Below, in pieces: positions 4,903-61,717 of a DNA stretch of 64,000 nucleotides; position 1 is the first letter of the stretch; every line of letters begins with the position of its first letter. The translations under genes and the position numbers were made by a program. Below the pieces are notes generated by a model. It saw only the letters and a list, made by a program, of their open reading frames with translations, searched no databases and was not told where the DNA came from. The DNA lies in the NCBI GenBank assembly GCA_965261545.1, contig CBDHDF010000010.1, forward strand, positions 32,001-96,000, read 5' to 3'. This DNA is from Bdellovibrionales bacterium (GTDB lineage: Bacteria > Bdellovibrionota > Bdellovibrionia > Bdellovibrionales > UBA1609).

Positions 4903-6202
4903 CCTTAATGGATATATGGATCGGGTGAAGTACTTTTTGAAGTTGAACCCAAGTAACACCGCCCGTGAAATATATGAGCTATTAGTTGAGGAGGGTTATC
5001 GTGGGAGTGAGAGAACGGTTCAGAGAAGAGTTTGTGAGATTCTTGGTTCTCGCCCCAAGGAGCGTTTTTTCAGCCAAAGATATGATCCTGGAGAACAGGC
5101 TCAGTTTGATTTTAAGGAGAAGGTTGCTTTACCATTTGCCGATGGTGTTCAGATCGTTCATCTCCATTTTGGAACATTGCCTTGTAGTGGCACCTGTTGG
5201 GTTCGTGCCTACCCCTTTCTTGTCTATGAGTGTTTCATCGATGGGGTGCATGCTTTTTTTGAAAAGATAGGTGGGATGAGTGCGAACATCCGTATTGATA
5301 ATTTATCTCCCTGTGTGAAGAAAGTTCTTAAAGGAAATCAGCGAATTTACACCCAATCTTTTGATCGAGCCATCCAATACTATGGATTTAAGGTTCTTCC
5401 CTGCCGCGCAGGGAAGGGCTCTGACAAGGGAGATGTGGAGCGTGATATTCGAACCTTCAGTTCTCGGATAAAAAATATTGTTAGAAACAAAGGAATTGTT
5501 TTTAAAGACTGGGATCATTTGAATCAGTTTTTAGAGTCTTATATGGATCAGCATCAGAGTGACTCCACCAAATCTCGCTTTGAGGAGGAGGCCAAAGTTC
5601 TTAAGCCTTTGCCTCCACGAGATGAAGATATTCTCTGTAAGGTGAATATTTGTCAAAGTAATGGTTATGGGACTTTGAGAATAGGTAAAACCACATATTC
5701 CATACCTGATGAGGTGATCCAAGCTCCCTGTAAAACCGTACAGGGTCCCTATCATGTCACGATCTATCGTGACGAAGGAGGGAAACAAGAAATTGTCGCT
5801 CGCCATCAAAGAAAACCTGATGGGGAGCATAGTCTTCTTCTTGAACATATCCTTCCCTCTTTAGTTCGTAAGCCGCAAGCCATGGTAAGATGGGCTCACC
5901 GATCCATTCTTTTTCCAACAAATGTGTTTGAAAATTTTTATCAATACCTCAAGCAACAAGATTCAAGCCGTGCCGAGCATGAATATTTAAGAGTTATCAA
6001 CTTGATTCAGCATGTGAGTTGGCAGGACTTATCTACAGCCATGGAGCTTCAATTAGAAAGTCGTGAGATTTTCGACTTTAAATCCATAAAAGATTTGCTC
6101 TTAGGCAATCCCACCAAAATTAATTTGAATGACCAACAAAAACCACTTCAACCTAGATTGTCTCAATATGACAGTCTTGTTCCAAACATAGGAGGTTCTT
6201 AA
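4903..6202 (+). pseudogene. istA: IS21 IstA, 5' part separated by IS4 insertion
   Basis: Matches 58407..60011 but lacks the N-terminal HTH; GEQAQFDF, IDNL, DKGDVER motifs. Confidence 0.88.
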
Positions 6203-6984
6203 TGAATCACGAAGAACTTATAGGTTCTCTTAAAAAACTCCGACTTCCAGCGATGGCGGATGAATATGTTGCAACGGCTAGAGTTGCCGAAAAAACAAAA
6301 AAGACGTATGAACAGTATTTAGGTATACTCGTTCAAAATGAGCTTGCTGACAAGCATTCCCAGAGAGTGAAAAGATTGCTTAAGGGGGCCAAGCTTCCTC
6401 AACTTAAATCACTCCAAACTTATAACTTCCAGAAAAGAACGGGAGTGACAGCTCAGAAAATTAATTGGATGGCAGAGGGAGAGTGGGTCAGAAAAGCCTG
6501 TAATGTTGTGTTTTACGGAAGCTTTGGAATGGGGAAAAGTCATTTGGCCATGTCCCTAGTTCGTTCACTCTGTGAACAAGGCTATCGATGTTTATGGGTC
6601 ACCACTCATGAACTTATTGAAACAATGCGTGAAAGCAAGAAAGAACTCTCATTGAATGCTCTTTTTAAGAAATTAGACCGTTTTGATCTTATTGCTTGTG
6701 ATGAACTTGGCTATACAGCTTCCTGCACAGAGGGGGCAGATCTTTTCTTTCAATTCATATCTCAGCGATATGAAAGGAAAAGTCTCATGATCACTACAAA
6801 CTTAACATACTCTGAATGGGATAAGGTGTTTCTTAACCCTATTACCACCGCTGCTGCTGTTGATCGAATCATTCACAACTGTGAAACCCTCAACATTGAA
6901 GGAAAAGAAAGTTGGAGAACCGAATCGGCAAAAGCCAAGTCTAAACAGAGCAAAGAGGAAAGTTCAACCAAAGAAGTTCATTAG
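6202..6984 (+). CDS. istB: IS21 helper ATPase IstB
   Basis: Walker A GSFGMGKS, DELGY, ITTNL, AAVDRIIH. Confidence 0.95.
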   Translation: MNHEELIGSLKKLRLPAMADEYVATARVAEKTKKTYEQYLGILVQNELADKHSQRVKRLLKGAKLPQLKSLQTYNFQKRTGVTAQKINWMAEGEWVRKACNVVFYGSFGMGKSHLAMSLVRSLCEQGYRCLWVTTHELIETMRESKKELSLNALFKKLDRFDLIACDELGYTASCTEGADLFFQFISQRYERKSLMITTNLTYSEWDKVFLNPITTAAAVDRIIHNCETLNIEGKESWRTESAKAKSKQSKEESSTKEVH

Positions 6985-7011
6985 AGATCCCCACTTTTGG
7001 GGAAGGAACTC

Positions 7012-7109
7012 GCCAGTTATCCACAAAATTTATCCACAGCAGCACTGCGTTGCTAGACATCGGGGTCACAGCCGCAGTGTCGCCATGGATAAATTTATGG
7101 ATAACTGGC
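7012..7109. repeat. 98-bp imperfect palindrome with DnaA-box motifs downstream of istB (copy 1)
   Basis: GCCAGTTATCCACAAAATTTATCCACA...TGGATAAATTTATGGATAACTGGC; TTATCCACA at 7017 and 7030. Confidence 0.85.
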
Positions 7110-8634
7110 TTTTACCGTACTATTTGCTCGTCACTCTCGCGGAGCTTTAGACATTAGCTGCGCCAAGGAATCCTGAAAAATACTCCATTTACCTCTGCCA
7201 TAGGGCTGAAGGATGCATTTGGGGTCATGCCAAAAGTGGTGGGCAGAAAATCATTCCTCAGAATCTTGTGGCATAGTCCGAGTTAAATGATGAGCAAAAT
7301 AAAGACACTTGACTAAACTCTGAACGAAGAATAACTAAATCAGTACATCATCAACTGGCCGTTTTTCATTGGCGACGGCTTCTAAAAATGGCCAATTTTA
7401 ATTGGTGCAAAATTTCACCTAGTTTGACCCACCCAATTTCACCTGGTTTGACCCACCCAATTTCACGAAGTTTGACCCACTGAATTTCACCAAACATTGA
7501 CCCACTTAGATCTTCATAGATATTCTTTCTGCGCTACGCATTAACGAGGAGGTGTCTATGGGCAAACAAGGTAAGAAAAAAGGAGCAAGAATGATCAACA
7601 ATATTAAGAAATACATAGAGCTTGGACTCAGTTCGAGACAAATAGCTCGAGCTATGGGTGTTAGTCGGAACACTGTGAAGAAGTATGTGAAGGATAGTCC
7701 CGGAGGCCCTAACAGCCGCTCAAAGGGGTCGCATGGGCCCTACCAAGCCCCATGGTCATCCAAGGTGAATTGGACAGATGTTCGCCTCAAGCAAAGCCTA
7801 GGGACTCAATTGGCTCATTACTGGGAGCGACATATTCAGTCCGAGATTGACGGTGTGAGTTATCTTTCTTTTTGGAGAGAGTTTCGTCGGAGGCACCCAA
7901 GTATAAAGCTTGATATGCACCAGACATTCACCCCTGGTGAACGGAGTGAGTTTGACTATAAGGGAAAAGACTCTTGTTTTGGCTATACAGATGCCAAGAC
8001 TGGGGAGTTCATCCCATGTCGATTATTTGGAATGATACTTCCATCGAGTCAGTTTTTCTTTCCATGCGCCACATTAACAGAGCAGCGGGAAGATGTTTTT
8101 TCCTCCATAGCTTCTGGTTTTGAGTTTTTTGGTGGTGTGACCGGAACCATTGCTTTTGATAACGCAAAGGTTCAAGTGACAAGAGCTGATACTTATGACC
8201 CCGATATTAACTCTGAGTTTCACCTCTTGTGTGATCACTACAATGTGGCTCCTTTGGCGATGAGGCCATCTCGCCCCAAAGACAAGAGTCTTATCGAAAA
8301 TACCCTTGGAGTCTTTTGGCGCTGGTCTTGGCCCCAGATAAGAGAGCGGCAAATGTATTCTCTAGCAGACATCAACGCTGAGTTGAAGCATTTGGCAGCT
8401 ATTTTCAATGATCGTATTCAAAAAAAGTATGGGTTGAGTCGTCGACAGAAGTTTGAATCTTTTGAGAAGTCAAAATTGAATCCTCTTCCTGAAAGACGCT
8501 ATGAGAGTGGATTCTGGAAGCATTCCAAGGTTCATCCGGATTGTCACATTCAATATAACTACAATTTTTACTCTGTTCCTTATAAGCATCGCGGCAAGAA
8601 GTTAGATATTCGTATTAGCCAACAATGCTTGGAG

Positions 8635-10051
8635 CAATGCCGTTTCCTTAAGAAAAATCTCTTGAAATTATTAGATAAATCGACAAGAATAAGACTTGTT
8701 TTATTTTACACCCAACCCTCAACCAAGGAGTAAGTCACATGCAATCCAATATTGATCTCGAAAGCCCCCAAATGACGAGTTCGCGTCACAGATGACCATT
8801 TTATTCTACCAAAACTTGATTCTTCCTTCAAGCCAGAGCACCTTGTCGATCCAGAAAAACAAAAAAGGAATCGAAAATTTAATCCTCAAATTTTCTTTTT
8901 TACCATTATCTATCTTATTTCCGGAACAAATTACGAAGGCTACCAAATCGCTCTTAAGACGGTATGGACTCATTTTGGTGACCTGCTTCTCATGCCAGTC
9001 AAAAGCAGTCTCAGCAAGATACGTCAAAGTATTTCTTACCTATTTTTCAAAGATATCTTTGAATCTCTGATTACAGACTACGAACCATTGAGAAAAACGT
9101 TTCATGGTTTTTATATCTATGCCATAGATGGCGACCAATTAGCACTTCCTCGCTCTAAAGATCTTTTAAAGGAGGGTTATTGTGGGTACCCTTGCCCAAA
9201 TGAGATGGAAACTCATTTCTTACGTATGTATCTATCTCATGCTTATGACGTTTTATCGGGTGTGACAAAGAATCTTTGCTTTTCTCCCGCTCTCAACGAA
9301 ATCGCCAATGCTATTCAAATGATAGGTAGTTTTGAGAGTAATAGCATAACTCTCTACGATAGGCTTTATTTATCTACAGAGATTATTAAGGCCCATGCTC
9401 AAGCCAGTAACTTCTTTATTGCGCGTTGTAAGCGAGGCTCTACTTTTATCCCCATTGTAAATTTATTTAATGGCCCAGGTTGGTATTCACGAATGGTTAT
9501 TGAGGGGGTGGTCATTCATCTCTATAAGTATAAAAACCCAAAGACTGGGGAGTTCTCTGTTTTGGCCACTAATCTTCCGCATGGCTCCTTGGACAAGAAG
9601 GATATGGTTGCTCTTTACTCTCGTCGTTGGGAAATAGAAACGACATTTCGTGATTTTACATCGACAATGAAAATGGAGCAGTGGCACTCAACAAGCCTTA
9701 ATGGAATATTGCAAGAGCTGTATTCTTATTTTTGGCTCTTCAATTATACAAAGATTCAAATGAGCATAAATGAGGATGAAGACAGTGTGAATCAGTTGGT
9801 AAAAAATGACTACAAAAAACCTAACTTTAAACTGATTCTTGATTTCATAATGGATAGCATCCCTCTTTTTGTTGCGGGGCTCTATCAGAAATTTAGGAAG
9901 CAGATAAAGTTGCTGATGAAGATTTCAATGGAGAAGAGGAGGCACTTCAAAAGAAGCTATGAAAGGTCTATCAAAAGGGCTGGGAGTTCTTTTAAAAGAA
10001 ATAGCTTAACGCAGAGGCAGAGGGGTGTGGTGGCTTAAGGAAACGGCATTG
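8635..10051 (+). mobile_element. IS4-family element (copy 2, complete, 1417 bp)
   Basis: 18-bp IRs CAATGCCGTTTCCTTAAG / CTTAAGGAAACGGCATTG; 10-bp duplication ATGCTTGGAG at 8625-8634 and 10052-10061. Confidence 0.95.
8776..10038 (+). CDS. IS4-family transposase (open frame starts 8776; first in-frame ATG 8992)
   Basis: AIDG, YDRLY, YSRRWEIETTFR motifs; the frame is open upstream of the ATG and encodes RNRKFNP, typical of IS4 N-termini. Confidence 0.85.
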   Translation, partial: RVRVTDDHFILPKLDSSFKPEHLVDPEKQKRNRKFNPQIFFFTIIYLISGTNYEGYQIALKTVWTHFGDLLLMPVKSSLSKIRQSISYLFFKDIFESLITDYEPLRKTFHGFYIYAIDGDQLALPRSKDLLKEGYCGYPCPNEMETHFLRMYLSHAYDVLSGVTKNLCFSPALNEIANAIQMIGSFESNSITLYDRLYLSTEIIKAHAQASNFFIARCKRGSTFIPIVNLFNGPGWYSRMVIEGVVIHLYKYKNPKTGEFSVLATNLPHGSLDKKDMVALYSRRWEIETTFRDFTSTMKMEQWHSTSLNGILQELYSYFWLFNYTKIQMSINEDEDSVNQLVKNDYKKPNFKLILDFIMDSIPLFVAGLYQKFRKQIKLLMKISMEKRRHFKRSYERSIKRAGSSFKRNSLTQRQRGVVA

Positions 10052-10470
10052 ATGCTTGGAGGTTTATTCAGAATTAGAGCGGGTGGCGATACATCACATC
10101 CCCCAGGGCAGTCGAGGGCGCTACTTTACGACAAAATCTCATCTCCCTGAGTCCCACCGGGCCATTTTAGAGCAAACGCCACAAAATGTACTTAAAGAGG
10201 CATCAAGCCTTGGAGAAAGCATTCACAAAGTTGCCGAGCGGCTTATCAAAGAGCCTCGCCATCCGCTTATGTATCTTCGTCGTGTTCAGGGGATACTCAA
10301 TCTAAGAAAACGGTATTCAACAGCTTCTTTGGAGCAGGCTTGTACAATTGCGCGTATTGCCCGCACTGGTTGCACCCATTACCCTCACTTTCCCTATTTC
10401 AATGCGTCATTGATGATTTTCCTTCCCATTTCTGGGGAAAATTTTAGTTAATTTGTAATCCTATTTCTTC

Positions 10471-11223
10471 CTATTTTAGGGAAAAGTCCTGGTCAAGTTT
10501 TGTTCCCTGGATTTTTCGATAACTCTCTCCTTTAAGTAAAATTTTTATGGCGGTATGCTTCAAACGGTCGATGATAGTATCTGCCAGCACCTCATCATCA
10601 ATAATTTCTGACCAATGCGTTATTGGCAGTTGAGTGGTAATAACGGTGGACCTATCGGAACGAAACTTTAAAATATCGCAGAAGTCTGTGGATTCACTTT
10701 GGGAGAACTTCCTTAATCCAAAGTCATCAAAAATTAACACTTGGGGGCGGCCCAGACGACGCAAGTAGTTCAAATACCTTCCTGAGTGCCTTTCCAGGGC
10801 CAAGGTTTCTAGAAATATGTTGATGTCTATAAACAGTGTGGAGATTCTGGATTGACAACACTGGTGTCCCAGGCTCTGGGCCAAGAAGGTTTTACCCACC
10901 CCCGTTGGCCCTTCGACAATGATAGACCTTTGCTCCTTAACCCATGATAAAGTTTGAAGCCTATCCACCTCTCTTTTACTAATAGACCTTTTGGCATGGT
11001 GGTCAAATGCCTCACCTCTGACCTTGTGAGGCAGCTTTGAGGTCTTGAGAAGTCTTTGGCTGAATTGGATTTTCCGAGCCTCCACTTCTGCAAATAACAG
11101 CTCGTTCAATAGATCCAATGCTTGAGTCTTGTGGCTTGTGTTATCCAGCGCCACTTCAAGGCTGTCTAACATTCCATAGAGCTTCAACTCATGCATGTGG
11201 TTTTTGATTTGTACTTCATCCAT
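10471..11223 (-). CDS. istB: IstB ATPase
   Basis: GPTGVGKT, DDFG, ITTQLP, IIDRL. Confidence 0.95.
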   Translation of the reverse strand: MDEVQIKNHMHELKLYGMLDSLEVALDNTSHKTQALDLLNELLFAEVEARKIQFSQRLLKTSKLPHKVRGEAFDHHAKRSISKREVDRLQTLSWVKEQRSIIVEGPTGVGKTFLAQSLGHQCCQSRISTLFIDINIFLETLALERHSGRYLNYLRRLGRPQVLIFDDFGLRKFSQSESTDFCDILKFRSDRSTVITTQLPITHWSEIIDDEVLADTIIDRLKHTAIKILLKGESYRKIQGTKLDQDFSLK

Positions 11224-12739
11224 CTGGCACCTCCTTGGGGCTTTGGTTATTTGGATTTTCGTTATGTCGCAAATAAGGGTTGCCTTGTTTACGATCTATT
11301 TTCTCGTTCACCTTTTTTATTTTTTGCCCTTTATAGAAATGGAGTTGTTGCTGAAAATATCTAACCCTCCTTTTCTCCCACTGCTTGCAGTCCTCAAGGG
11401 CTTTGATAATGAGAGGAAGGGACTTTTCCTTGCCCTCTTTCTGGATTTCTTTGTGACAGGAGCTTACAAAGCCCATAGCTCTTCTGAGATTTTCAATGGT
11501 CCCACCCTGAAAAAGCTCCTCAATGAAGTTTTCAAGCTCTTTACAAATCATACTTGCTTGAATAAGAATGTTCTGGGGAGTGGCCTCCTTGTAGGCGCGA
11601 CTGGGCTCCGGGAGGTGTTCGTTTTTGGTGATGTACTCTCCGAGTTTACCTTTGGTCCTCTTGTGGCGAGCGAGGAGCTGTTTTTGAAAGTAAATCTCCA
11701 CACTCTCCACTCCAATTTTTACATCTACATACTCCCCTCGGTGCTGAAACGGAGCCGAGTAGAAGTTGGATTCAACGCTCACATGACAGTCTTGGTGGAG
11801 TTTTTTCTTCTCCCAACGTCCCCACCGGTAGGGAAAAGAAGGCAAGGGTTTTAAAGTTTTTACCTCTCGTTGAAATTTTTCATTGCGAGAGACCTTAAAT
11901 CTTGTGTGAGGGCGAGCATTTATCTTCTCGCACACCTCCCTTAAAGCCTTATTAATTTGATCCAGACTGGTGAAGGTCTCTCGTCTGTACATAAACCTGA
12001 GGGCCCTTGTAACGAGCTTCACGGCATTCTCAGTAAGGCTTTTATCCTGGGGACGACGAACTCGAGCGGGAACAGCCACCGTGTCATAGTGTTCCAAAAG
12101 CTCTTGGTAGGATTTATTCAACTCTGGATCATACAAATGGGGTGTGTTCACTCCAGTCTTTAAATTATCAGGAACAACCACTCTCGGAACCCCACCGTAA
12201 TATTCAAACATCAGAACGTGAGCGTGAAGAAAATCTTCACTAGATTCGCTCAAAGAGCCATAAGCAAAAATACGCTGAGAGAAACATAGATTTGAGCAAA
12301 ATATATGGGCCTTATGAATATTAAGGTCTTCATCGATCCACTCTGGCTGAAATCCTGCGTAATCAACCTCAACTTGGTGGCCTGGCTGAAAATCACGCAA
12401 GGTAATAATCCTTTTGCCAGCTTTTGGAAATTGCTTATGAAACTCCCTCGTAAACTGGGGGTAGCTAATGACCTTCAGAAATTTTTCCTCCCAAACGTCA
12501 CTTAAACAATGCCTATCCTCAATCTCCTTCTCAATAATCTTCCAATCTATACCGTAAGACCAAGGGGGAATTTCTCTTTGGGTCTTCCAATCCTTGGGGT
12601 CTGTTAAAAGACCACGTCTTATCTTTCTAAGAGTCTTGGTGCAGCATTTCATGCGGCGACTGATTTCTCGGTCGGGAATATTTGCCTTTATTAATGATTT
12701 TATTTTTGTGTAACGCTCATGATCCATCTTTGTTCTCAT
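11216..12739 (-). CDS. istA: IstA transposase
   Basis: VEVDY, PDNLKTGV, PQDKSLTE; start placed at ATG 12739 after an AGGAGG RBS. Confidence 0.92.
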   Translation of the reverse strand: MRTKMDHERYTKIKSLIKANIPDREISRRMKCCTKTLRKIRRGLLTDPKDWKTQREIPPWSYGIDWKIIEKEIEDRHCLSDVWEEKFLKVISYPQFTREFHKQFPKAGKRIITLRDFQPGHQVEVDYAGFQPEWIDEDLNIHKAHIFCSNLCFSQRIFAYGSLSESSEDFLHAHVLMFEYYGGVPRVVVPDNLKTGVNTPHLYDPELNKSYQELLEHYDTVAVPARVRRPQDKSLTENAVKLVTRALRFMYRRETFTSLDQINKALREVCEKINARPHTRFKVSRNEKFQREVKTLKPLPSFPYRWGRWEKKKLHQDCHVSVESNFYSAPFQHRGEYVDVKIGVESVEIYFQKQLLARHKRTKGKLGEYITKNEHLPEPSRAYKEATPQNILIQASMICKELENFIEELFQGGTIENLRRAMGFVSSCHKEIQKEGKEKSLPLIIKALEDCKQWEKRRVRYFQQQLHFYKGQKIKKVNEKIDRKQGNPYLRHNENPNNQSPKEVPDG

Positions 12740-12820
12740 TTCGACCTCCTTGGTTAAAGATTGGAGGTCTTTATAGAACATCAATGACGCTATGCTAAGG
12801 GGAATCAGTCATGCCAATCA

Positions 12821-13050
12821 GTGCGGGCAATGCCATGCAACTGGTGCGGGCAATGCCATGCAACTGGTGCGGGCAATGCCATGCAACTGGTGCGGGCAAT
12901 GCCATGCAACTGGTGCGGGCAATGCCATGCAACTGGTGCGGGCAATGCCATGCAACTGGTGAGGGTAATGCCATGCAACTGGTGAGGGTAATGCCATGCA
13001 ACTGGTGAGGGTAATGTCATGCAATCGGTGAGGGCAATGCCATGCAATTT
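12821..13050. repeat. Tandem array of 10 x 23-bp units at the left end of IS21-C
   Basis: Unit GTGCGGGCAATGCCATGCAACTG: six identical copies, then GTGAGGG(T/C)AATG variants; two related inverted copies at the other end (about 10345-10389). Confidence 0.95.
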
Positions 13051-13299
13051 TACACAGGCTTGCTCATTTTTTGTAGATGCAGCTTTAAGTGACATTAGGG
13101 TTCGTGGAGTTGAGAAAGTCATTTCAGCAAAAAGTCATCGAAAAGAGGAGCCAAGAGTCTGCCGTCAACCTAATGAAAATTTAAGAGGTTCAGAGCACTG
13201 GGAGAATACTTGGCACTGATCCATAGCCCCGGTGGGTGGTTCTCAACCACCTAACGGGTCATTTTGACCTCCATAAGAGAGGTCGTATAGGAGAAGAAA

Positions 13300-14028
13300 A
13301 TGATTAAACAAACAGAAAATTTATTAGAGATATTAAAAATGAGGGGAGTTTTAGCAACCTTGAGCCAGAGGCTCAAAGAAGCTGAGGAGCAGGATCTTGG
13401 TTACGAGGACTTTCTAAATGTCATCTTTGAGGACGAAAAAATCCATCGTGAAAATCAGAAGGTCTCAAGACTTATCAAAAGAGCAGCTTTGCAGCAAAAA
13501 GCAAGCCTTGAGGCCTTTGAAACCAAATCCAACCGAGGAGTCGATCGAAGAGTTTTGAGTGATCTAGCCCTTATGAGATTTGCTCAAAGAGGTCAAAATA
13601 TAATTATCTCTGGCCCAACGGGTGTTGGAAAGTCATATTTGGCTTGTGCCATAGGTAATCACGCCTGTCGCCAAGGTTTTTCCACTCAGTTCTTCAGAAT
13701 GAATACTCTTGTTGAAAAATTCAACTTAGAAAGAGCCCAGGGGACATATCTAAACTTCCTTAAAAGGCTAAAATCAGTCTCGATACTTGTGTTGGATGAT
13801 TTTGGTATCAAGCCCCTTACCTCTAACCAATATCAAGACCTTTACGATGTGATTGATGAACGAGGCCCTGACCTGAGCCTCATTCTTACAACCCAACTTC
13901 CAATAAAAAATTGGAGTGAAGTCATTGAGGATCCCATCGTTTGTGAAGCTATTATGGATCGCATAACCTCTCAAGCTATCAAAATAGCCATGTCTGGAAG
14001 CTCATTTAGGCAGAAAAAGACGATTTAA
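13300..14028 (+). CDS. istB: IstB ATPase of element B
   Basis: GPTGVGKS, LDDFG, TTQLP, IMDRI. Confidence 0.95.
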   Translation: MIKQTENLLEILKMRGVLATLSQRLKEAEEQDLGYEDFLNVIFEDEKIHRENQKVSRLIKRAALQQKASLEAFETKSNRGVDRRVLSDLALMRFAQRGQNIIISGPTGVGKSYLACAIGNHACRQGFSTQFFRMNTLVEKFNLERAQGTYLNFLKRLKSVSILVLDDFGIKPLTSNQYQDLYDVIDERGPDLSLILTTQLPIKNWSEVIEDPIVCEAIMDRITSQAIKIAMSGSSFRQKKTI

Positions 14029-14104
14029 GGAGAATCCATGCAAAGGCAGACCTTGGAAGACACCATCGGGAGACACTCCATCGGAACTATTGAATCATGT
14101 ACCC

Positions 14105-14202
14105 GCCAGTTATCCACAAAATTTACCCACGGCAGCGCTGCGTTGATAGACATCGGGGTCACAGACGCAGCGTCACCATGGATAAATTTGTGGATAACTG
14201 GC
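14105..14202. repeat. 98-bp DnaA-box palindrome (variant copy in IS21-B)
   Basis: 90/98 identical to 7012-7109 by manual alignment; TTATCCACA at 14110 and TGTGGATAA at 14189. Confidence 0.85.
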
Positions 14203-14714
14203 TCGCTATTCTCTGCCATTTTGAGCAATGGATTCAACATCCCCATTGAAAAACCCTCCATTGAAACCTCAGAAATGGGGAGGGTCGAGATTCTCAATGA
14301 CAAAGTGGCCAATTTTAGTTGGCATCTAACATTCTGGCAAATAAGCCTTAACCCACCGTTGGGACATCGTGACATTGAGGGTGTAAAAGTTACTGAGTCA
14401 GCAGAAAAAAGAAGGTTTAAATTGACAAAGTTTGAGCCACCGTGAAATTCAAAATTGGACCTCAAATTGACTGACTGAGGGGTGGGTCAAACTTCGTGAA
14501 ATTCAGTGGGTCAAACTCGTGAAATTCAGCAATTGGCGCCTAACAACCAGAACTTTTCCAACTCCTCTTGGAGCCACTACCTCTTGACCACGTGGAGCCC
14601 TGAGAGCCTGTAAGCCCCTTCTTAGACCCCGTAAAACCTAGAGCCTCCACAGTTCTTATAATTTGGGAAACTCAGGGCGAACATTCCGATAGCCCACAGG
14701 GGCTCCCGGAGGGG

Positions 14715-17266
14715 CAATGGCATTCGTTTAGTGAGAGATCCCATTCGGTTAAGGATTTGAACCTCTAACTCCTCGGGGGTGGGCTAACCCCAAGTTTTTT
14801 TTTGATCCATGTGATTATCCGTTGGCCATAGCCCCCCTAACCTCTTTACTGGGTCTCCATACTCCGATGGGTTTTCTAGAAACTCGGTCGTAATGCCTAT
14901 TCGGACGTAGCCTTTGTCGGCAGGTCTTCATATTTGTAATGATGCAATTGAGGGTTTTACTAAGCACTACCTTTTGTTGAAGAAAAAGACCTTCAATATT
15001 TCTTGCAATTGTCAGTAAATTGTTTTTAAAGTTTGTCTGCATGGTTTATTTTTTACTATGGGATTGAGATGTATTAAGACGGTCTTCCGTGTAGTTGGAA
15101 AATAATCTTGTCAGAGTGATAAGTGTGAAGTGTGCAAACAATTCTTGTTTGACTCCCCTTTCACTTTGAGAATGAAACTCTTCAATGGTCATCAGTTCTT
15201 TGGATATTTTGTACAGTTCCTCTATACTCCAGCGTCCATGATAGAGATTGGCCAGATCATCAATGGAATATTTTTTTTGATCCATTAAGGTTGTTCCTAG
15301 AACAAAAGTAGTTTGTCCAATTTTATATTTGACCAAACGCAAAGCGTAGGCTTTGAAGTCGTCTTGTGGCTTTTTTTTATGTAGTTCTTTCAGAATTTGC
15401 TTGCTAGGAATGACTTGGATCACTGAGTCTTTTTGATCATTATTAATAAATTCATCAAAAACAGTGTTGGCATTTCTCCTTATCCTAAACACCGCATGCA
15501 GACTTCGCACCTTATGCTCATGAAGCATTTCGTAGGAATAATAGCCACGATCATAAACCACAACATCGTTTTCAAACAATTTTTTGAAATGAGTTTGTGC
15601 AGCCTTTCTCTCATTGTTATGGGCAAAGAGATCAAAATCCACAGGAATCTTCGACTGTAGTTGGTACAGGCAACTGACAAGACCTTGAGGGTACCATGCT
15701 TTTTCCCATGGTTGCTGATACCCATTATCTACGAGTTGACGTGGTAAATTTATTTTCGATCCATCCACTGCGAAAACCTTATGGCCCTTCCATAAGGTAC
15801 TAGAATTGGATATACCGTCTTGTTTAAGAATTTCATCATGCAAAACTTTAAATATATTTTCATCTACTTTAGCCCGTGCACTACACATAGTGGATGCCCG
15901 AACTGGTTTAGGTTGAGGGAGTTCAATGTCTAATATGCGACACTGCTCCCAAAGTTCAATCAAAGTTGTATCATAACCTTGTTTTCCTTTAGAGAAAACA
16001 AGTCGGAAGATGAAAAGTATAATCAACAATGTATTCAAGACACGTTGACGCTTTTGCCAGGTTCGGTCGTACTCATCTGCAATGATAACCACTGTCTTGA
16101 TGATGTTTTGCCAAAGATGCACAAAAGAGTCCTCTAGCATAGGCTCAGCCAAGTTCTTATGTGGCTTGATGGTGGGTTTCCCGACGGGTTTCTTGATAGC
16201 GCATTGGGGGCCATTCAATAAGATAGACTGATAATTCTTTGTCAGAGGTTGAACATAAACACCTTTTTGAGTTTTTCCCTTTACATTTTTGTAGGCACGA
16301 CTCCCATTTGTTTTGCCCAAATAAAGCCAGTTGGCAGCACGATAGCTCGTGGCATTAAATTTGGTAAGGTCGACAAAAGTCTCCATGAGTACAGGTTTGA
16401 AAGCATGTTTTAACTCCCAGTCTGTGGGAAGTTGGCGAGTTGCCATAGATAAAGCCATCGAAGCAAGATGGCGAACCTTTACCCAGGGAAAGATCAAAAA
16501 TCGACTATTGTTCACCACTAAATTCAAGTGCTTTTTGTAAGCTCGATTTTGCCAACCGATCCATTCATCACGGCAAGGCAAAGTGGATGTGCCAGCTTCA
16601 AATAAAAGACAACCCAATCGTCGCCCACAATTATCTAGGATGAAATAGCGCAAATGGGGACCAAAGGGACGTCTGTAATTGAGATAATGATGCCGATCGA
16701 CAACTTCATTCCATTCCTTAATGGCCTCTTGATCAGTTACGATTTGCAAAGAAAGTGGGGTCAATGAGTCTAGTTTATCGTTGATGAGAGGCTTTTCATC
16801 TGTTCGGTGTGTCCAAGTGATTTTTTTGGAGGGGACACTCCGCTTTGACATGTCTTTTTCTGGCAGGGATAGAATGTCAAGTTCCTCTAGCGTCTCAAGC
16901 ATACGAAGGCACGATTGGATGCGATGATCACCTTTGGGAGTTAGCCAACCAAGATGCTCACAAACTGTATAACCCAGTTCACGGCGACTTAAAGAAGGAA
17001 ATAGCGCCACCGTCTTTTGAATGTCGGCAATTTGCTTGCGCGTCAAGCGTCTTCCAAAAAAAGTTGTTGAAGGCAATGTCTCTATGCGTGGGTCCATTTG
17101 AGTCTCTCCCCTTTGGGAATGGTTCAAATATAATGTGACACAACGATGGGGTGGACTCAAGTATTTTTTTTCGGAAAAAGAAAAAAGATAAAAGCCCCCT
17201 TAACTCAGTATGTTAGAGGGAGTCAGAAAAATGTGGAAAAACCTTCTGCAAAAACGAATGCCATTG
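14715..17266 (-). mobile_element. IS4-family element encoding a DUF4338-transposase fusion
   Basis: 15-bp IRs CAATGGCATTCGTTT (14715) and AAACGAATGCCATTG (17266); flanks differ, so no target duplication. Confidence 0.85.
14815..17097 (-). pseudogene. DUF4338 (DruA-like) domain fused to IS4 DDE transposase, with in-frame stop at 15046-15048
   Basis: N-half: HHYL, RDEWIGW, NNSRFLIFPW, ETFVD, SYRAANW. C-half: AVDGSK, YDRGY, YHGRWSIEELYK. ORF 14815..15042 continues in frame after KK*T. ATG 17097 follows an AGGGGAG RBS. Confidence 0.85.
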
Positions 17267-20237: not shown

Positions 20238-20519
20238 AGTTCCTGTCCAGGAATGGCTCTTTTTCGCCAATTTGCTTCTTCTACTCAAGCCTCAAGGGAT
20301 TTGAGAGATAAAATATTCAAAAAAAGGCCATGAGAGTGGAGTTCCTCAAGTGGAGTGTTTTTTAAGTTTATAGCCCCTCCCCTCTATTTTATCAAGGGCC
20401 AGATGCCAGTAATTTATACACCCTTTGGTGCACTTTCTTCTCCATTATCCTTCACCTTTTCATGGCTTTTATAGTGGTGATGACTCCTAAAAGTGGCCAA
20501 TTCTAATTGGCACCTAACA
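20238..20519. mobile_element. Orphan IS ends: ISNCY-type end (20238) and IS21-type end (about 20488-20519)
   Basis: AGTTCCTGTCCAGG matches the start of the window; GGCCAATTCTAATTGGCACCTAACA resembles the IS21-A right end. Confidence 0.65.
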
Positions 20520-20571
20520 TCAGGCCATGGGGTCCTCCAGCAGAGCTGGAGGGTTATCTTTTATAATTATT

Positions 20572-57688: not shown

Positions 57689-58544
57689 TCATTATCTTCT
57701 TTGAACTCCCTCCAGCCCTTTCGCTCTAATTTTTAGCCTTCTTTATCTTCTTGATCTTGAGGACCTTTCCATTTTTCATAGGGATAACTCTGTTTAAAGG
57801 AAAAGGTTGGAGAGGAAAGCATTGCTCATCAGTTTTCAATCTGAGAAAAGCTTTGGCTGACTTCAGAAATCAACCTTGATATAGCGATAGCCTTTGTTTG
57901 TCATAATTTTCCTTTCGTTGTTTGGGGTCGCTCAATCCGCACCTCTCTCTGTTTCCGCCCCTCAATTGTTCGTGCCTGTTAGCTGACAATTAAAATGCCC
58001 CACCGTCGCCAATGAAAAGTGGCCACTTTTCAGAGGAGGACCTATGGTGATTTTTGGCATTGTCAACCGAGACGCATATAATCAATTGATATTACTCATA
58101 AAAAGGCTCCGAGCTGATAAGAACTCCTTTTGGGTTCTTGTCGACCTGGAAAGGGGCTCCGTGTTGGAGAGTCCTTCCATGACAGCCTATTCAGGTTCCA
58201 TATTTCTCCCTTTGTAGACTGTTTCTGGATTTCAATGAGGTTAAATATATAGTCAAGAAAAGCCTGTTTAGGCTGTGCCCATTTTCTAAAGTATTTAAAT
58301 TCCACAAGATTCCAACATTTGCCTCAATTTTCATGGAATTTCTTTCTGAAGACAGGCTTCCCTTAAAGCCGTCGCCAATTAAAATGTCCCACTTTCAATA
58401 TGGAGGTTGTCGCCAATGAAAAGTGACCAATCTTCAGGGAGTGTTCAAATACTAGACAATGAAGTCTCTTCTTCTGATATAGATACTAAGCTCACAGAGT
58501 CCCTCCCTCTTGCAACTCAAAAGGTTAGCAATGAGGAGGATCTT

Positions 58545-60011
58545 ATGATTAGTCAATACACTTTCGGCCGCATTCGTGACCTGAGTCACAGTGGTAAAAA
58601 TAAGACAGAAATATCTCGTGAATTAGGGATCAATCGTAAGACGGTGCGCAAGTACTGTGAGTCCAACACCCCACCGAAGTACAAGGCGAGGTCCAAAAGA
58701 ACTCGCCCAGATCCCCTTAATGGATATATGGATCGGGTGAAGTACTTTTTGAAGTTGAACCCAAGTAACACCGCCCGTGAAATATATGAGCTATTAGTTG
58801 AGGAGGGTTATCGTGGGAGTGAGAGAACGGTTCAGAGAAGAGTTTGTGAGATTCTTGGTTCTCGCCCCAAGGAGCGTTTTTTCAGCCAAAGATATGATCC
58901 TGGAGAACAGGCTCAGTTTGATTTTAAGGAGAAGGTTGCTTTACCATTTGCCGATGGTGTTCAGATCGTTCATCTCCATTTTGGAACATTGCCTTGTAGT
59001 GGCACCTGTTGGGTTCGTGCCTACCCCTTTCTTGTCTATGAGTGTTTCATCGATGGGGTGCATGCTTTTTTTGAAAAGATAGGTGGGATGAGTGCGAACA
59101 TCCGTATTGATAATTTATCTCCCTGTGTGAAGAAAGTTCTTAAAGGAAATCAGCGAATTTACACCCAATCTTTTGATCGAGCCATCCAATACTATGGATT
59201 TAAGGTTCTTCCCTGCCGCGCAGGGAAGGGCTCTGACAAGGGAGATGTGGAGCGTGATATTCGAACCTTCAGTTCTCGGATAAAAAATATTGTTAGAAAC
59301 AAAGGAATTGTTTTTAAAGACTGGGATCATTTGAATCAGTTTTTAGAGTCTTATATGGATCAGCATCAGAGTGACTCCACCAAATCTCGCTTTGAGGAGG
59401 AGGCCAAAGTTCTTAAGCCTTTGCCTCCACGAGATGAAGATATTCTCTGTAAGGTGAATATTTGTCAAAGTAATGGTTATGGGACTTTGAGAATAGGTAA
59501 AACCACATATTCCATACCTGATGAGGTGATCCAAGCTCCCTGTAAAACCGTACAGGGTCCCTATCATGTCACGATCTATCGTGCAGGAGGGAAGCAAGAA
59601 ATTGTCGCTCGCCATCAAAGAAAACCTGATGGGGAGCATAGTCTTCTTCTTGAACATATCCTTCCCTCTTTAGTTCGTAAGCCGCAAGCCATGGTAAGAT
59701 GGGCTCACCGATCCATTCTTTTTCCAACAAATGTGTTTGAAAATTTTTATCAATACCTCAAGCAACAAGATTCAAGCCGTGCCGAGCATGAATATTTAAG
59801 AGTTATCAACTTGATTCAGCATGTGAGTTGGCAGGACTTATCTACAGCCATGGAGCTTCAATTAGAAAGTCGTGAGATTTTCGACTTTAAATCCATAAAA
59901 GATTTGCTCTTAGGCAATCCCACCAAAATTAATTTGAATGACCAACAAAAACCACTTCAACCTAGATTGTCTCAATATGACAGTCTTGTTCCAAACATAG
60001 GAGGTTCTTAA
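58545..60011 (+). CDS. istA: IstA transposase
   Basis: HTH NKTEISRELGINRKTVRKY and DDE motifs; ATG after GAGGAGG. Confidence 0.93.
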   Translation: MISQYTFGRIRDLSHSGKNKTEISRELGINRKTVRKYCESNTPPKYKARSKRTRPDPLNGYMDRVKYFLKLNPSNTAREIYELLVEEGYRGSERTVQRRVCEILGSRPKERFFSQRYDPGEQAQFDFKEKVALPFADGVQIVHLHFGTLPCSGTCWVRAYPFLVYECFIDGVHAFFEKIGGMSANIRIDNLSPCVKKVLKGNQRIYTQSFDRAIQYYGFKVLPCRAGKGSDKGDVERDIRTFSSRIKNIVRNKGIVFKDWDHLNQFLESYMDQHQSDSTKSRFEEEAKVLKPLPPRDEDILCKVNICQSNGYGTLRIGKTTYSIPDEVIQAPCKTVQGPYHVTIYRAGGKQEIVARHQRKPDGEHSLLLEHILPSLVRKPQAMVRWAHRSILFPTNVFENFYQYLKQQDSSRAEHEYLRVINLIQHVSWQDLSTAMELQLESREIFDFKSIKDLLLGNPTKINLNDQQKPLQPRLSQYDSLVPNIGGS

Positions 60012-60793
60012 TGAATCACGAAGAACTTATAGGTTCTCTTAAAAAACTCCGACTTCCAGCGATGGCGGATGAATATGTTGCAACGGCTAGAGTTGCCGAA
60101 AAAACAAAAAAGACGTATGAACAGTATTTAGGTATACTCGTTCAAAATGAGCTTGCTGACAAGCATTCCCAGAGAGTGAAAAGATTGCTTAAGGGGGCCA
60201 AGCTTCCTCAACTTAAATCACTCCAAACTTATAACTTCCAGAAAAGAACGGGAGTGACAGCTCAGCAAATTAATCGGATGGCAGAGGGAGAGTGGGTCAG
60301 AAAAGCCTGTAATGTTGTGTTTTACGGAAGCTTTGGAATGGGGAAAAGTCATTTGGCCATGTCCCTAGTTCGTTCACTCTGTGAACAAGGCTATCGATGT
60401 TTATGGGTCACCACTCATGAACTTATTGAAACAATGCGTGAAAGCAAGAAAGAACTCTCATTGAATGCTCTTTTTAAGAAATTAGACCGTTTTGATCTTA
60501 TTGCTTGTGATGAACTTGGCTATACAGCTTCCTGCACAGAGGGTGCTGATCTTTTCTTTCAATTCATATCTCAGCGATATGAAAGGAAAAGTCTCATGAT
60601 CACTACAAACTTAACTTACTCTGAATGGGATAAGGTGTTTCTTAACCCTATTACCACCGCTGCTGCTGTTGATCGAATTATTCACAACTGTGAAACCCTC
60701 AACATTGAAGGAAAAGAAAGTTGGAGAACCGAATCGGCAAAAGCCAAGTCTAAACAGAGCAAAGAGGAAAGTTCAACCAAAGAAGTTCATTAG
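60011..60793 (+). CDS. istB: IstB ATPase
   Basis: Two aa differences from 6202..6984. Confidence 0.95.
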   Translation: MNHEELIGSLKKLRLPAMADEYVATARVAEKTKKTYEQYLGILVQNELADKHSQRVKRLLKGAKLPQLKSLQTYNFQKRTGVTAQQINRMAEGEWVRKACNVVFYGSFGMGKSHLAMSLVRSLCEQGYRCLWVTTHELIETMRESKKELSLNALFKKLDRFDLIACDELGYTASCTEGADLFFQFISQRYERKSLMITTNLTYSEWDKVFLNPITTAAAVDRIIHNCETLNIEGKESWRTESAKAKSKQSKEESSTKEVH

Positions 60794-60820
60794 AGATCCC
60801 CACTTTTGGGGAAGGAACTC

Positions 60821-60918
60821 GCCAGTTATCCACAAAATTTATCCACAGCAGCACTGCGTTGCTAGACATCGGGGTCACAGCCGCAGTGTCGCCATGGATA
60901 AATTTATGGATAACTGGC
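60821..60918. repeat. 98-bp DnaA-box palindrome (copy 3)
   Basis: Identical to 7012-7109. Confidence 0.85.
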
Positions 60919-61717
60919 TTTTACCGTACTATTTGCTCGTCACTCTCGCGGAGCTTTAGACATTAGCTGCGCCAAAGGAATCCTGAAAAATACTCCATTT
61001 ACCTCTGCCATAGGGCTGAAGGATGCATTTGGGGTCATGCCAAAAGTGGTGGGCAGAAAATCATTCCTCAGAATCTTGTGGCATAGTCCGAGTTAAATGA
61101 TGAGCAAAATAAAGACACTTGACTAAACTCTGAACGAAGAATAACTAAATCAGTACATCATCAACTGGCCGTTTTTCATTGGCGACGGCTTCTAAAAATG
61201 GCCAATTTTAATTGGCGCCTAACATCCATAGATCAAATTAAGAAGATGAAGGCTAAGAATCATCGCAAATATATGGTGGCCATTGAAAAGAACAAACAAA
61301 GCTTGGCTCGGACTGTATAGTCTGGGCTTTGCCCTTAACTCCAAGAGAGGTCTTACTTTTTAACTCACAGGCTTCAAGGAAAGTTGCTTCTCAGCCACCA
61401 CTGATTTCGCCACAACTTCTCAAGGAACTCCAAGCCATCTGAATCTGGGCTATGGACGATGCTCATAAGTTCCAGAATATCACCTCTCACGTCCGCCAGA
61501 CGCTCTCCTGACCAAAGGGGTGGGAGAAAAGAGAAGGGCCGAGCTATTTATCCTTTCTATTCCCATCTTAAAATCAGTGGTGACTATAAATGAGTCGCCG
61601 TTATAATCCAGTGTTTAATCAAGCCTACGAATTGAAATGCTTTACCCCGTTCGCCGGGGAGCCGGGGATTGGCGATGTACTTGACTTTTGGCGTCCTCAA
61701 TGATTCTTCTCATACAT

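Follow-up and report, generated by a model that had tools for sequence, protein, structure and literature searches.

Judged from its sequence, the 98-bp imperfect palindrome described here is a real and conserved hairpin with DnaA boxes, which is carried as a passenger by insertion sequences (ISs) of different families and is related to known sites for host factors. A preliminary description had placed the same palindrome at positions 7012, 60821 and 14105 of the window, by which we mean the entire 64-kb stretch of DNA analysed. Direct comparison bore this out: the regions 7012-7109 and 60821-60918 are identical at 98/98 positions, and the region 14105-14202 is identical to 7012-7109 at 90/98 bases.

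The hairpin in the window and in the genome

The hairpins at 7012..7109 and 60821..60918 (minus strand, the bottom strand having the best fold) belong to an IS lineage that we name IS21-A, and the one at 14105..14202 (also minus strand) belongs to a second lineage, IS21-B. Both lineages were assigned to the IS21 family on the basis of an istA and an istB gene, TG...CA ends, repeated end motifs and a short target duplication (NF033546, PF01695). IS21-A has a length of ~3,246 bp and displays a 5-bp target duplication in 25/32 full copies; for IS21-B, which is ~2,980 bp long, a target duplication of 4-6 bp was found in 12/14 copies (both counts were made by eye). A complete IS21-A is located at 57977..61224 (plus strand; istA, 58407-60011; istB, 60011-60793). 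The other IS21-A copy of the window, with istB at 6202..6984 (plus strand, PF01695), is cut on its left side near position 4903, and its right end is split by the insertion of an IS21-B copy (7406..14531, plus strand) that has TG...CA ends and a 5-bp target duplication. Two further elements, one of the IS4 family and the other a third IS21, in turn interrupt this IS21-B copy. The istB gene of IS21-B is located at 13300..14028 (plus strand, PF01695). The istA-istB genes of the third IS21 lineage (10471..12784, minus strand) are not accompanied by the hairpin and provide an internal control; at the left end of this element there is a row of 23-bp repeats (12775-13093) with many more units than in IS21-A or IS21-B. 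A lone further A-type IS21 end is present at 20490-20520.

The hairpin starts 27 nt downstream of the istB stop codon in IS21-A and 76 nt downstream of it in IS21-B. In agreement with the preliminary description, the proteins of the two elements are dissimilar, with 23% identity over 299 aa for IstA and 25% over 206 aa for IstB. The ends and flanks had also been described as dissimilar. This holds immediately outside the hairpin, where similarity collapses to 3-6/10 bases on the left and 0-3/10 on the right (four 10-base blocks per side), but not further away: an A-type IS21 right end, recognized by its repeat family, is present inside IS21-B (14302..14331, plus strand), 100 nt past the hairpin and 200 nt before the IS21-B end proper, and is likely a relic of capture.

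The IS21-A hairpin consists of a long outer stem, in which two DnaA-box positions lie in tandem, a conserved A.C mismatch, a 6-bp inner stem and a variable top. Reading of the sequence confirmed that the arms carry DnaA boxes and near-boxes in inverted orientation. The left arm contains a perfect basal box (7017..7025, plus strand), which is invariant across alignments, and, in tandem with a 13-nt period, a second box (7030..7038, plus strand) that is perfect in IS21-A and degenerate in the other variants. On the right arm of IS21-A there are near-boxes with 2 and 1 mismatches; the latter is the inverted basal box (7096..7104, minus strand), which is perfect in the IS21-B, ISL3 and IS110 variants introduced below. 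The perfect boxes of the IS21-B hairpin are located at 14110-14118 and 14189-14197.

The istB gene of IS21-B is followed, 10 nt past its stop codon, by an ORF of 135 codons (14038-14445) that is preceded by a strong ribosome-binding motif and extends across both the hairpin and the A-type end inside the element; this ORF may represent a small third gene that the capture disrupted. A coding role for the hairpin itself was rejected because the ORFs crossing it (14038-14445 and 6860-7150) differ in frame between carriers, and it is also countered by loop indels among the ISL3 copies. Elsewhere in the window, the region 20572-42702, with genes for an integrase, a MobA/VirD2-like relaxase and F-type tra functions (TraG_N, TraC, TrbI, TraE and a coupling protein), corresponds to a conjugative element riddled with ISs. 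A 704-aa ORF (15046-17160), from a family with 27 ORF copies, has a Druantia DruA domain fused to a DDE transposase domain.

A blastn search of the genome resulted in 109 non-overlapping hairpin matches, all of which (109/109) have IS flanks on at least one side. They are A-type (56 full, 4 partial and 3 5'-halves), B-type (18 full, 1 partial), ISL3-type (20 full, 3 partial) or of a fourth type (4 matches). A search of the masked genome with nhmmer yielded no further full copy (the best match was a 30-nt piece, E 0.031), and two covariance models run on the genome returned the same places as blastn. Together these results indicate that the hairpin is neither specific to istB nor a free repeat, and the genome-wide scatter of a REP or MITE, which the preliminary description had considered, was not what we found.

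The matches define four carrier lineages from three families, namely IS21-A, IS21-B, an ISL3 element and an IS110 element that we take to be of the IS1111 type from its family features. In each of them the hairpin lies 3' of the last gene. In ISL3 it is found 64 nt 3' of the transposase gene, in an orientation opposite to that in the other carriers. Among the four copies of the fourth type, three follow an IS110 transposase gene at a distance of 74 nt, in an element of ~2 kb with sub-terminal inverted repeats, and the remaining copy lies in a diverged ISL3 end remnant. Near the left end of the IS1111-type carrier, ahead of the IS110 gene, there is an additional perfect DnaA box; the right part of the element is non-coding over 690 nt and might accommodate its guide RNA. 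The specific tie to IS21 and IstB proposed earlier is not supported, as the ISL3 and IS1111-type carriers are without IstB and the hairpin is missing from two further IS21 lineages present here in multiple copies, as well as from the nearest IstB relatives elsewhere. For the same reason, i.e. two carriers without IstB, this protein was rejected as a general binder of the hairpin.

Repeats cover 47% of the assembly, which contains at least 28 multi-copy IS lineages and has a patchy GC skew. For the comparison of families we took in 28 IS lineages with at least three ORF copies and a family call, leaving out one lineage without a family call, an Rpn family, recombinases and reverse transcriptases. 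The hairpin is carried by 4/10 lineages of families listed as circle-forming versus 0/18 of the others (Fisher p 0.010); this bias weakens to p 0.12 when two independent origins are counted, and to 0.067 if IS66, IS481 and ISKra4 are counted as circle-formers. The hairpin-free circle-family lineages (6/10) include IS256 (66 ORF copies), an IS110 (33) and two IS21s, and the hairpin is therefore optional at most. Four short IS21-B remnants without the hairpin were considered as cases of transposition in its absence and rejected, since their shared flanks identify them as duplicated segments. Orientation of the hairpin showed no bias relative to local GC skew (27 vs 29, p 0.89), which is a weak proxy in a rearranged genome; an orientation bias of IS21 was likewise not found in a published survey (PMC3971601).

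Probable capture and occurrence elsewhere

One A-type right end elsewhere in the genome holds a B-type hairpin, which indicates exchange between copies. Together with the A-type end located inside IS21-B, this fits a scenario in which the hairpin most likely reached IS21-B along with an A-type IS21 end. In the IS110 carrier, the ~60 nt upstream of the hairpin match the ISL3 end at 82-85%, and the IS1111-type element likely acquired the hairpin from an ISL3 end fragment. The simplest history would thus start from an A-clade IS21 and an ISL3 as the old carriers, with one additional capture from each of them via nested insertion and deletion. Non-coding modules, then, can move between unrelated IS families.

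Some hairpin copies have been invaded in turn. A group II intron of ~645 nt (Rfam D1D4-2, Intron_gpII; loci L008 and L009 and contigs C2, C4, C10 and C11) sits between hairpin positions 25 and 26 in 5/7 copies, splitting the second DnaA box, and in IS1634-type ends in the other two. As the sequence upstream of both intron sites is near-identical, targeting looks sequence-driven.

Among the relatives of the IS21-A IstB protein (51-71% identity), no box was found after istB up to the terminal repeats in 6/6 evaluable cases, a seventh being cut by a contig end, and the box pair was present in 0/27 loci encoding relatives of the IS21-B IstB. Since relatives of both proteins are without the hairpin, the module appears to be an addition in this lineage. 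Several of the hairpin-free IS21 relatives (L058, L063, L064, L066, L071, L072, L076 and L083) share a short motif, rich in GC and located directly ahead of the terminal repeats, which is perhaps the vestige of another end structure. Ten plasmid-borne relatives of IS21, ISL3 and IS110 contained no box in the 420 nt after the gene.

Broader searches gave similar results. Blastn over 60 relatives returned only two matches of 22-30 nt (E ~0.006); plasmids gave no match for the A variant and three chance matches of 20-25 nt for the ISL3 variant, and phages gave two chance matches of 24 nt. A pattern for the inner stem had 0 matches in metagenomes, and its looser version had 13 matches in viral contigs, none with arms. 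A pattern for the two arms was found in 0/400 genomes of the phylum, and the covariance models in 0/149 genomes of the class, in 0/39 of the family and in none of 66 relative loci. A homologue outside the lineage is thus to be regarded as not found rather than as absent: many of these genomes are fragmented assemblies, from which the ends of multi-copy ISs are often missing. The two closest ISL3 relatives (55%) are cut before their 3' ends. Nor was a description of such a module found in the literature, subscription papers and supplements being outside the scope of the search. IS21-A is present in sequencing runs of three studies; two of the runs contain both the A and the B hairpins and a third contains a 249-nt piece with the A hairpin. 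No RNA run is listed among those containing IS21-A.

Fold, conservation and DnaA boxes

Folding z-scores of the hairpin range from -10 to -12 as RNA and from -8 to -10 as DNA, and 0/200 shuffled sequences were as stable. To score pairing we used a hand-set structure of the bottom strand with 33 pairs and six variants. In this structure 99% of the cells are paired, compared with 28-50% in slid controls. Twenty-three of the pairs are invariant, 5 have a one-sided and 4 a two-sided change, and 1 departs by unpaired cells alone. Three of the two-sided pairs lie between the two boxes and one lies in the inner stem, for which the compensatory change pointed out in the preliminary description (CACTGCG/CGCAGTG versus CGCTGCG/CGCAGCG) is real in this count. 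In the shuffle test, the number of paired cells, the number of cells with two-sided change and the covariation score were each reached in 0/500 cases, the count of two-sided pairs in 53/500 and the count of further pair types in 500/500. The covariation consists of few events among related rows and falls short of formal proof. In addition, the left arm of one copy (C7:588643) has been made complementary to the right arm, which is a mark of template switching or an assembly error; since template switching can mimic covariation, the compensatory changes need not be selected.

All 7 wobble columns have the G-T on one strand (p 0.016, or 0.07 when the A.C mismatch is counted against it), and two of these columns as well as the A.C mismatch are invariant in 6/6 variants. 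The G-T strand folds better than its complement in 11/11 full-length variants, both as RNA (by 5-10 kcal/mol) and as DNA (by 0.3-3.6 kcal/mol). Relative to the mRNA of the transposase, it is the antisense strand in IS21-A, IS21-B and IS110 and the sense strand in ISL3, and the flipped orientation in ISL3 favours a role as DNA. Comparison of two ISL3-end lineages showed that the hairpin is identical at 92/97 positions (95%), versus 114/139 (82%) upstream (p 0.005) and 44/67 (66%) downstream (pooled p 4e-5). The hairpin is thus better conserved than flanks that include the terminal repeat, with the proviso that gene conversion among copies can inflate its conservation. Taken together, the pair counts, the flank comparison and the exchange between copies support the earlier view of an exchanged, covarying and conserved module.

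The hairpins hold 202 of the 298 perfect DnaA boxes of the genome, for which an order-4 model predicts 77 in all, and the chance of a perfect box within a given 33-bp stem is p ~4.5e-4. The basal box is fully paired in 5/6 variants and has one G-T in IS21-A. The host has a single dnaA gene; domain IV of its product contains KDHTTV, which we take to be the usual DnaA recognition signature, and the gap between dnaA and the next gene contains one perfect and three one-mismatch boxes. PriA and DciA are also encoded, which provides the host with ordinary replication restart. The preliminary reading of these motifs as DnaA boxes stands in so far as they fit the host DnaA; the link to replication that was attached to it is presumed.

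Outside this genome, the two-arm pattern matched 22 viral and 25 metagenome loci which, by eye, are phage or dnaA-region arrays; 10/22 and 4/25 of them, respectively, contain the tandem found in the left arm of the IS110 variant. As the pattern retrieves such arrays, the arms look, at the sequence level, like genuine DnaA-binding DNA, and the inner stem appears particular to this family. Dense DnaA-box arrays, many of them just upstream of terminase-like genes, are present on phage contigs L027-L029, L033, L035, L038, L045 and L041. Within the genome, a relaxed scan detected no other box-bearing hairpin and a second scan detected one match, in a coding region. In an IS1634-like element (38 matches, for example on the minus strand of C2 near 681198) there is a single perfect DnaA box, which overlaps the stop codon of the transposase gene ~60 nt from the right end.

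Possible role and rival explanations

IS21, ISL3 and IS110/IS1111 are listed as circle-forming families that presumably use copy-out-paste-in transposition (10.1101/2023.06.07.543989), the copy-out mode being termed "proposed" for IS21 (PMC11208146). The figure-eight is turned into a double-stranded circle by host replication (PMC7780238), and the accessible texts of 10.1101/2023.06.07.543989 and PMC7780238 leave second-strand priming of the circles to unnamed host replication factors. DnaA bound to a single-stranded hairpin with one box recruits DnaB and allows priming (PMC6127211). By analogy, we tentatively favour, at somewhat less than an even chance, the possibility that the hairpin is a site for loading DnaA on a single strand, similar to the A site of the ABC primosome, and that it aids the copy-out step. 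The IS strand predicted to be displaced as a circle during this step would fold into the hairpin and bind host DnaA, through which helicase and primase would be loaded and the second strand synthesised. The hairpin would then be an optional booster that spread through the capture of IS end fragments. Points that weigh against this reading are the circle-family lineages and IstB relatives that do without the hairpin, the small number of covariation events, the even orientation relative to GC skew, the modest strand difference as DNA (0.3-3.6 kcal/mol) and a host that has PriA and a helicase loader, DciA, other than the one of the A-site assay. Circle formation by these elements, folding in vivo, DnaA binding, helicase loading and a gain for transposition are all steps that we infer. 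Replication of IS911 reportedly requires primase. No end-to-end circle joints are listed in the assembled contigs of four sequencing runs, a form of data from which assembly drops rare forms. The wider proposition, of a portable priming cassette independent of IS family, i.e. a DnaA-loading single-stranded hairpin that completes copy-out and is exchanged between IS21, ISL3 and IS1111-type elements, we regard as doubtful. If it were true, two thirds of the perfect DnaA boxes of the chromosome would be in mobile DNA, enough for a DnaA sink. In any case, the 202 extra perfect boxes raise the question of an effect on host replication control, and a discrete 100-base cis element that is present or absent between sister lineages of one genome permits a with/without comparison.

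It seems unlikely that the hairpin is a neutral or selfish hitch-hiker, in which case a REP/MITE-type or origin-derived palindrome would have landed in two IS ends, multiplied along with these, spread further through nested insertion and deletion, and been tidied by template switching and gene conversion among ~105 copies. Its presence in this lineage only, the many ISs of this genome that manage without it, the capture relics in IS21-B and IS110, the B-type hairpin in an A-type end and the arm-corrected copy C7:588643 would all agree with such a history. However, the host DNA has no free copy, the hairpin edges are without target duplication, and the Y1 matches, just four and broken, are confined to two places more than 14 kb from any hairpin copy. 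Moreover, template switching should erase wobbles and the A.C mismatch, yet two wobble columns and the mismatch are invariant, as mentioned above, and the hairpin is better conserved than its flanks including the ISL3 terminal repeat.

Less probable still is the explanation that double-stranded DNA is bound by DnaA at the four box positions and that the palindrome is a by-product; DnaA would then time transposition to the cell cycle, block read-through transcription or bend the end, as proposed for the outside end of IS50. The two perfect boxes per copy, their share of the genomic boxes, an arm layout equal to that of dnaA-region and phage arrays and the single box near the right end of an IS1634 of this genome are in line with it, as is the binding of DnaA to Tn5 ends, where it is counted among co-opted host factors (PMC3347997). 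It leaves unexplained why changes between the boxes are compensatory, why the inner stem is conserved and why the wobbles are confined to one strand, and the boxes sit 130-690 nt inside the nearest IS end, with no overlap with the transposase-binding end, unlike in IS50. A structured RNA comparable to Ssr9, acting in antisense or as a 3' stem that stabilises an IS transcript, is quite improbable. The G-U wobbles, the strand preference of 5-10 kcal/mol as RNA, the constant position 3' of the last gene and the precedent of Ssr9 downstream of the ISPpu9 transposase gene (PMC12288879) speak for it. Among the three forms offered in the preliminary description (structured RNA, single-stranded hairpin or DnaA-binding site) it is nevertheless the weakest, since in 3/4 carriers the strand with the better fold is the antisense strand of the transposase mRNA, ISL3 being the carrier in which it is sense. 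In addition, the 3' region of IS21-A has no sigma-70-like promoter and that of IS21-B has one chance-level match, the stem has no U-tract in IS21-B, ISL3 and IS110, no Rfam family matches at gathering score, and DnaA boxes make no sense in an RNA.

Relation to known systems

Integron attC sites have RYYYAAC at the 5' end and GTTRRRY at the 3' end; in the hairpin this order is reversed on both strands, and an attC site was rejected. An intrinsic terminator was also rejected, as four T residues follow the stem in IS21-A and none in IS21-B, ISL3 and IS110, and a terminator scan missed the full stem. Rfam had 0 matches in the window at gathering score, and the IS110 variant produced only a sub-threshold match to a miRNA precursor (39 vs 79 bits).

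REP, REPIN and BIME sequences with their RAYTs, and TIRYT repeats, are likewise multi-copy imperfect palindromes of ~100 nt (PMC6006769), and the loop of the A and B hairpins holds a match to GGGG[AT][CG]A[CG], a motif missing in the ISL3 and IS110 variants. Unlike REP/RAYT systems, the hairpin has no copies in host intergenic DNA and no intact Y1 gene beside it; a REP, REPIN or TIR repeat was rejected because Y1/RAYT sequences amount to four partial PF01797 matches at C3:567-852 and C2:290837-293193, away from the copies. A MITE was rejected in view of edges without target duplication and flanks that are constant within each IS lineage.

The arrays of dnaA/oriC regions and phages resemble the hairpin in having two tandem boxes at a 12-13 nt period with an inverted partner 50-80 nt away, and viral contig L041 (49-142) even contains a near-perfect hairpin of the same two-boxes-per-arm design (55 bits). 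These arrays differ in that they have neither the wobbles nor the conserved inner stem of the hairpin, reach 22-55 bits versus 96-109 for intact hairpins and have no adjacent transposase gene (ORFs read by eye). Ssr9 of ISPpu9, an IS110 element, is also an optional non-coding module downstream of a transposase gene and is dispensable for transposition (PMC12288879). According to the same source it is a transcribed RNA restricted to one IS family that also occurs alone, whereas the hairpin has no free copies and crosses families.

The outside end of IS50/Tn5 provides the example of an IS with a site for host DnaA, in which one box overlaps the transposase-binding end and DnaA competes with transposase (PMC3347997). 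In contrast, the boxes of the hairpin are internal and inverted, lie in a covarying stem and are common to three IS families.

The A site of the ABC primosome originates from ssiA of plasmid R6K. The system was shown with DnaC of E. coli, whereas the present host encodes DciA, and the hairpin differs from the A site in having two tandem box positions per arm and in being carried by ISs instead of a plasmid. As described in PMC6127211 (from Masai 1990), the A site is an imperfect hairpin with a consensus DnaA box in its duplex stem, and it is by this description that the present hairpin, which would act on one strand, resembles it.
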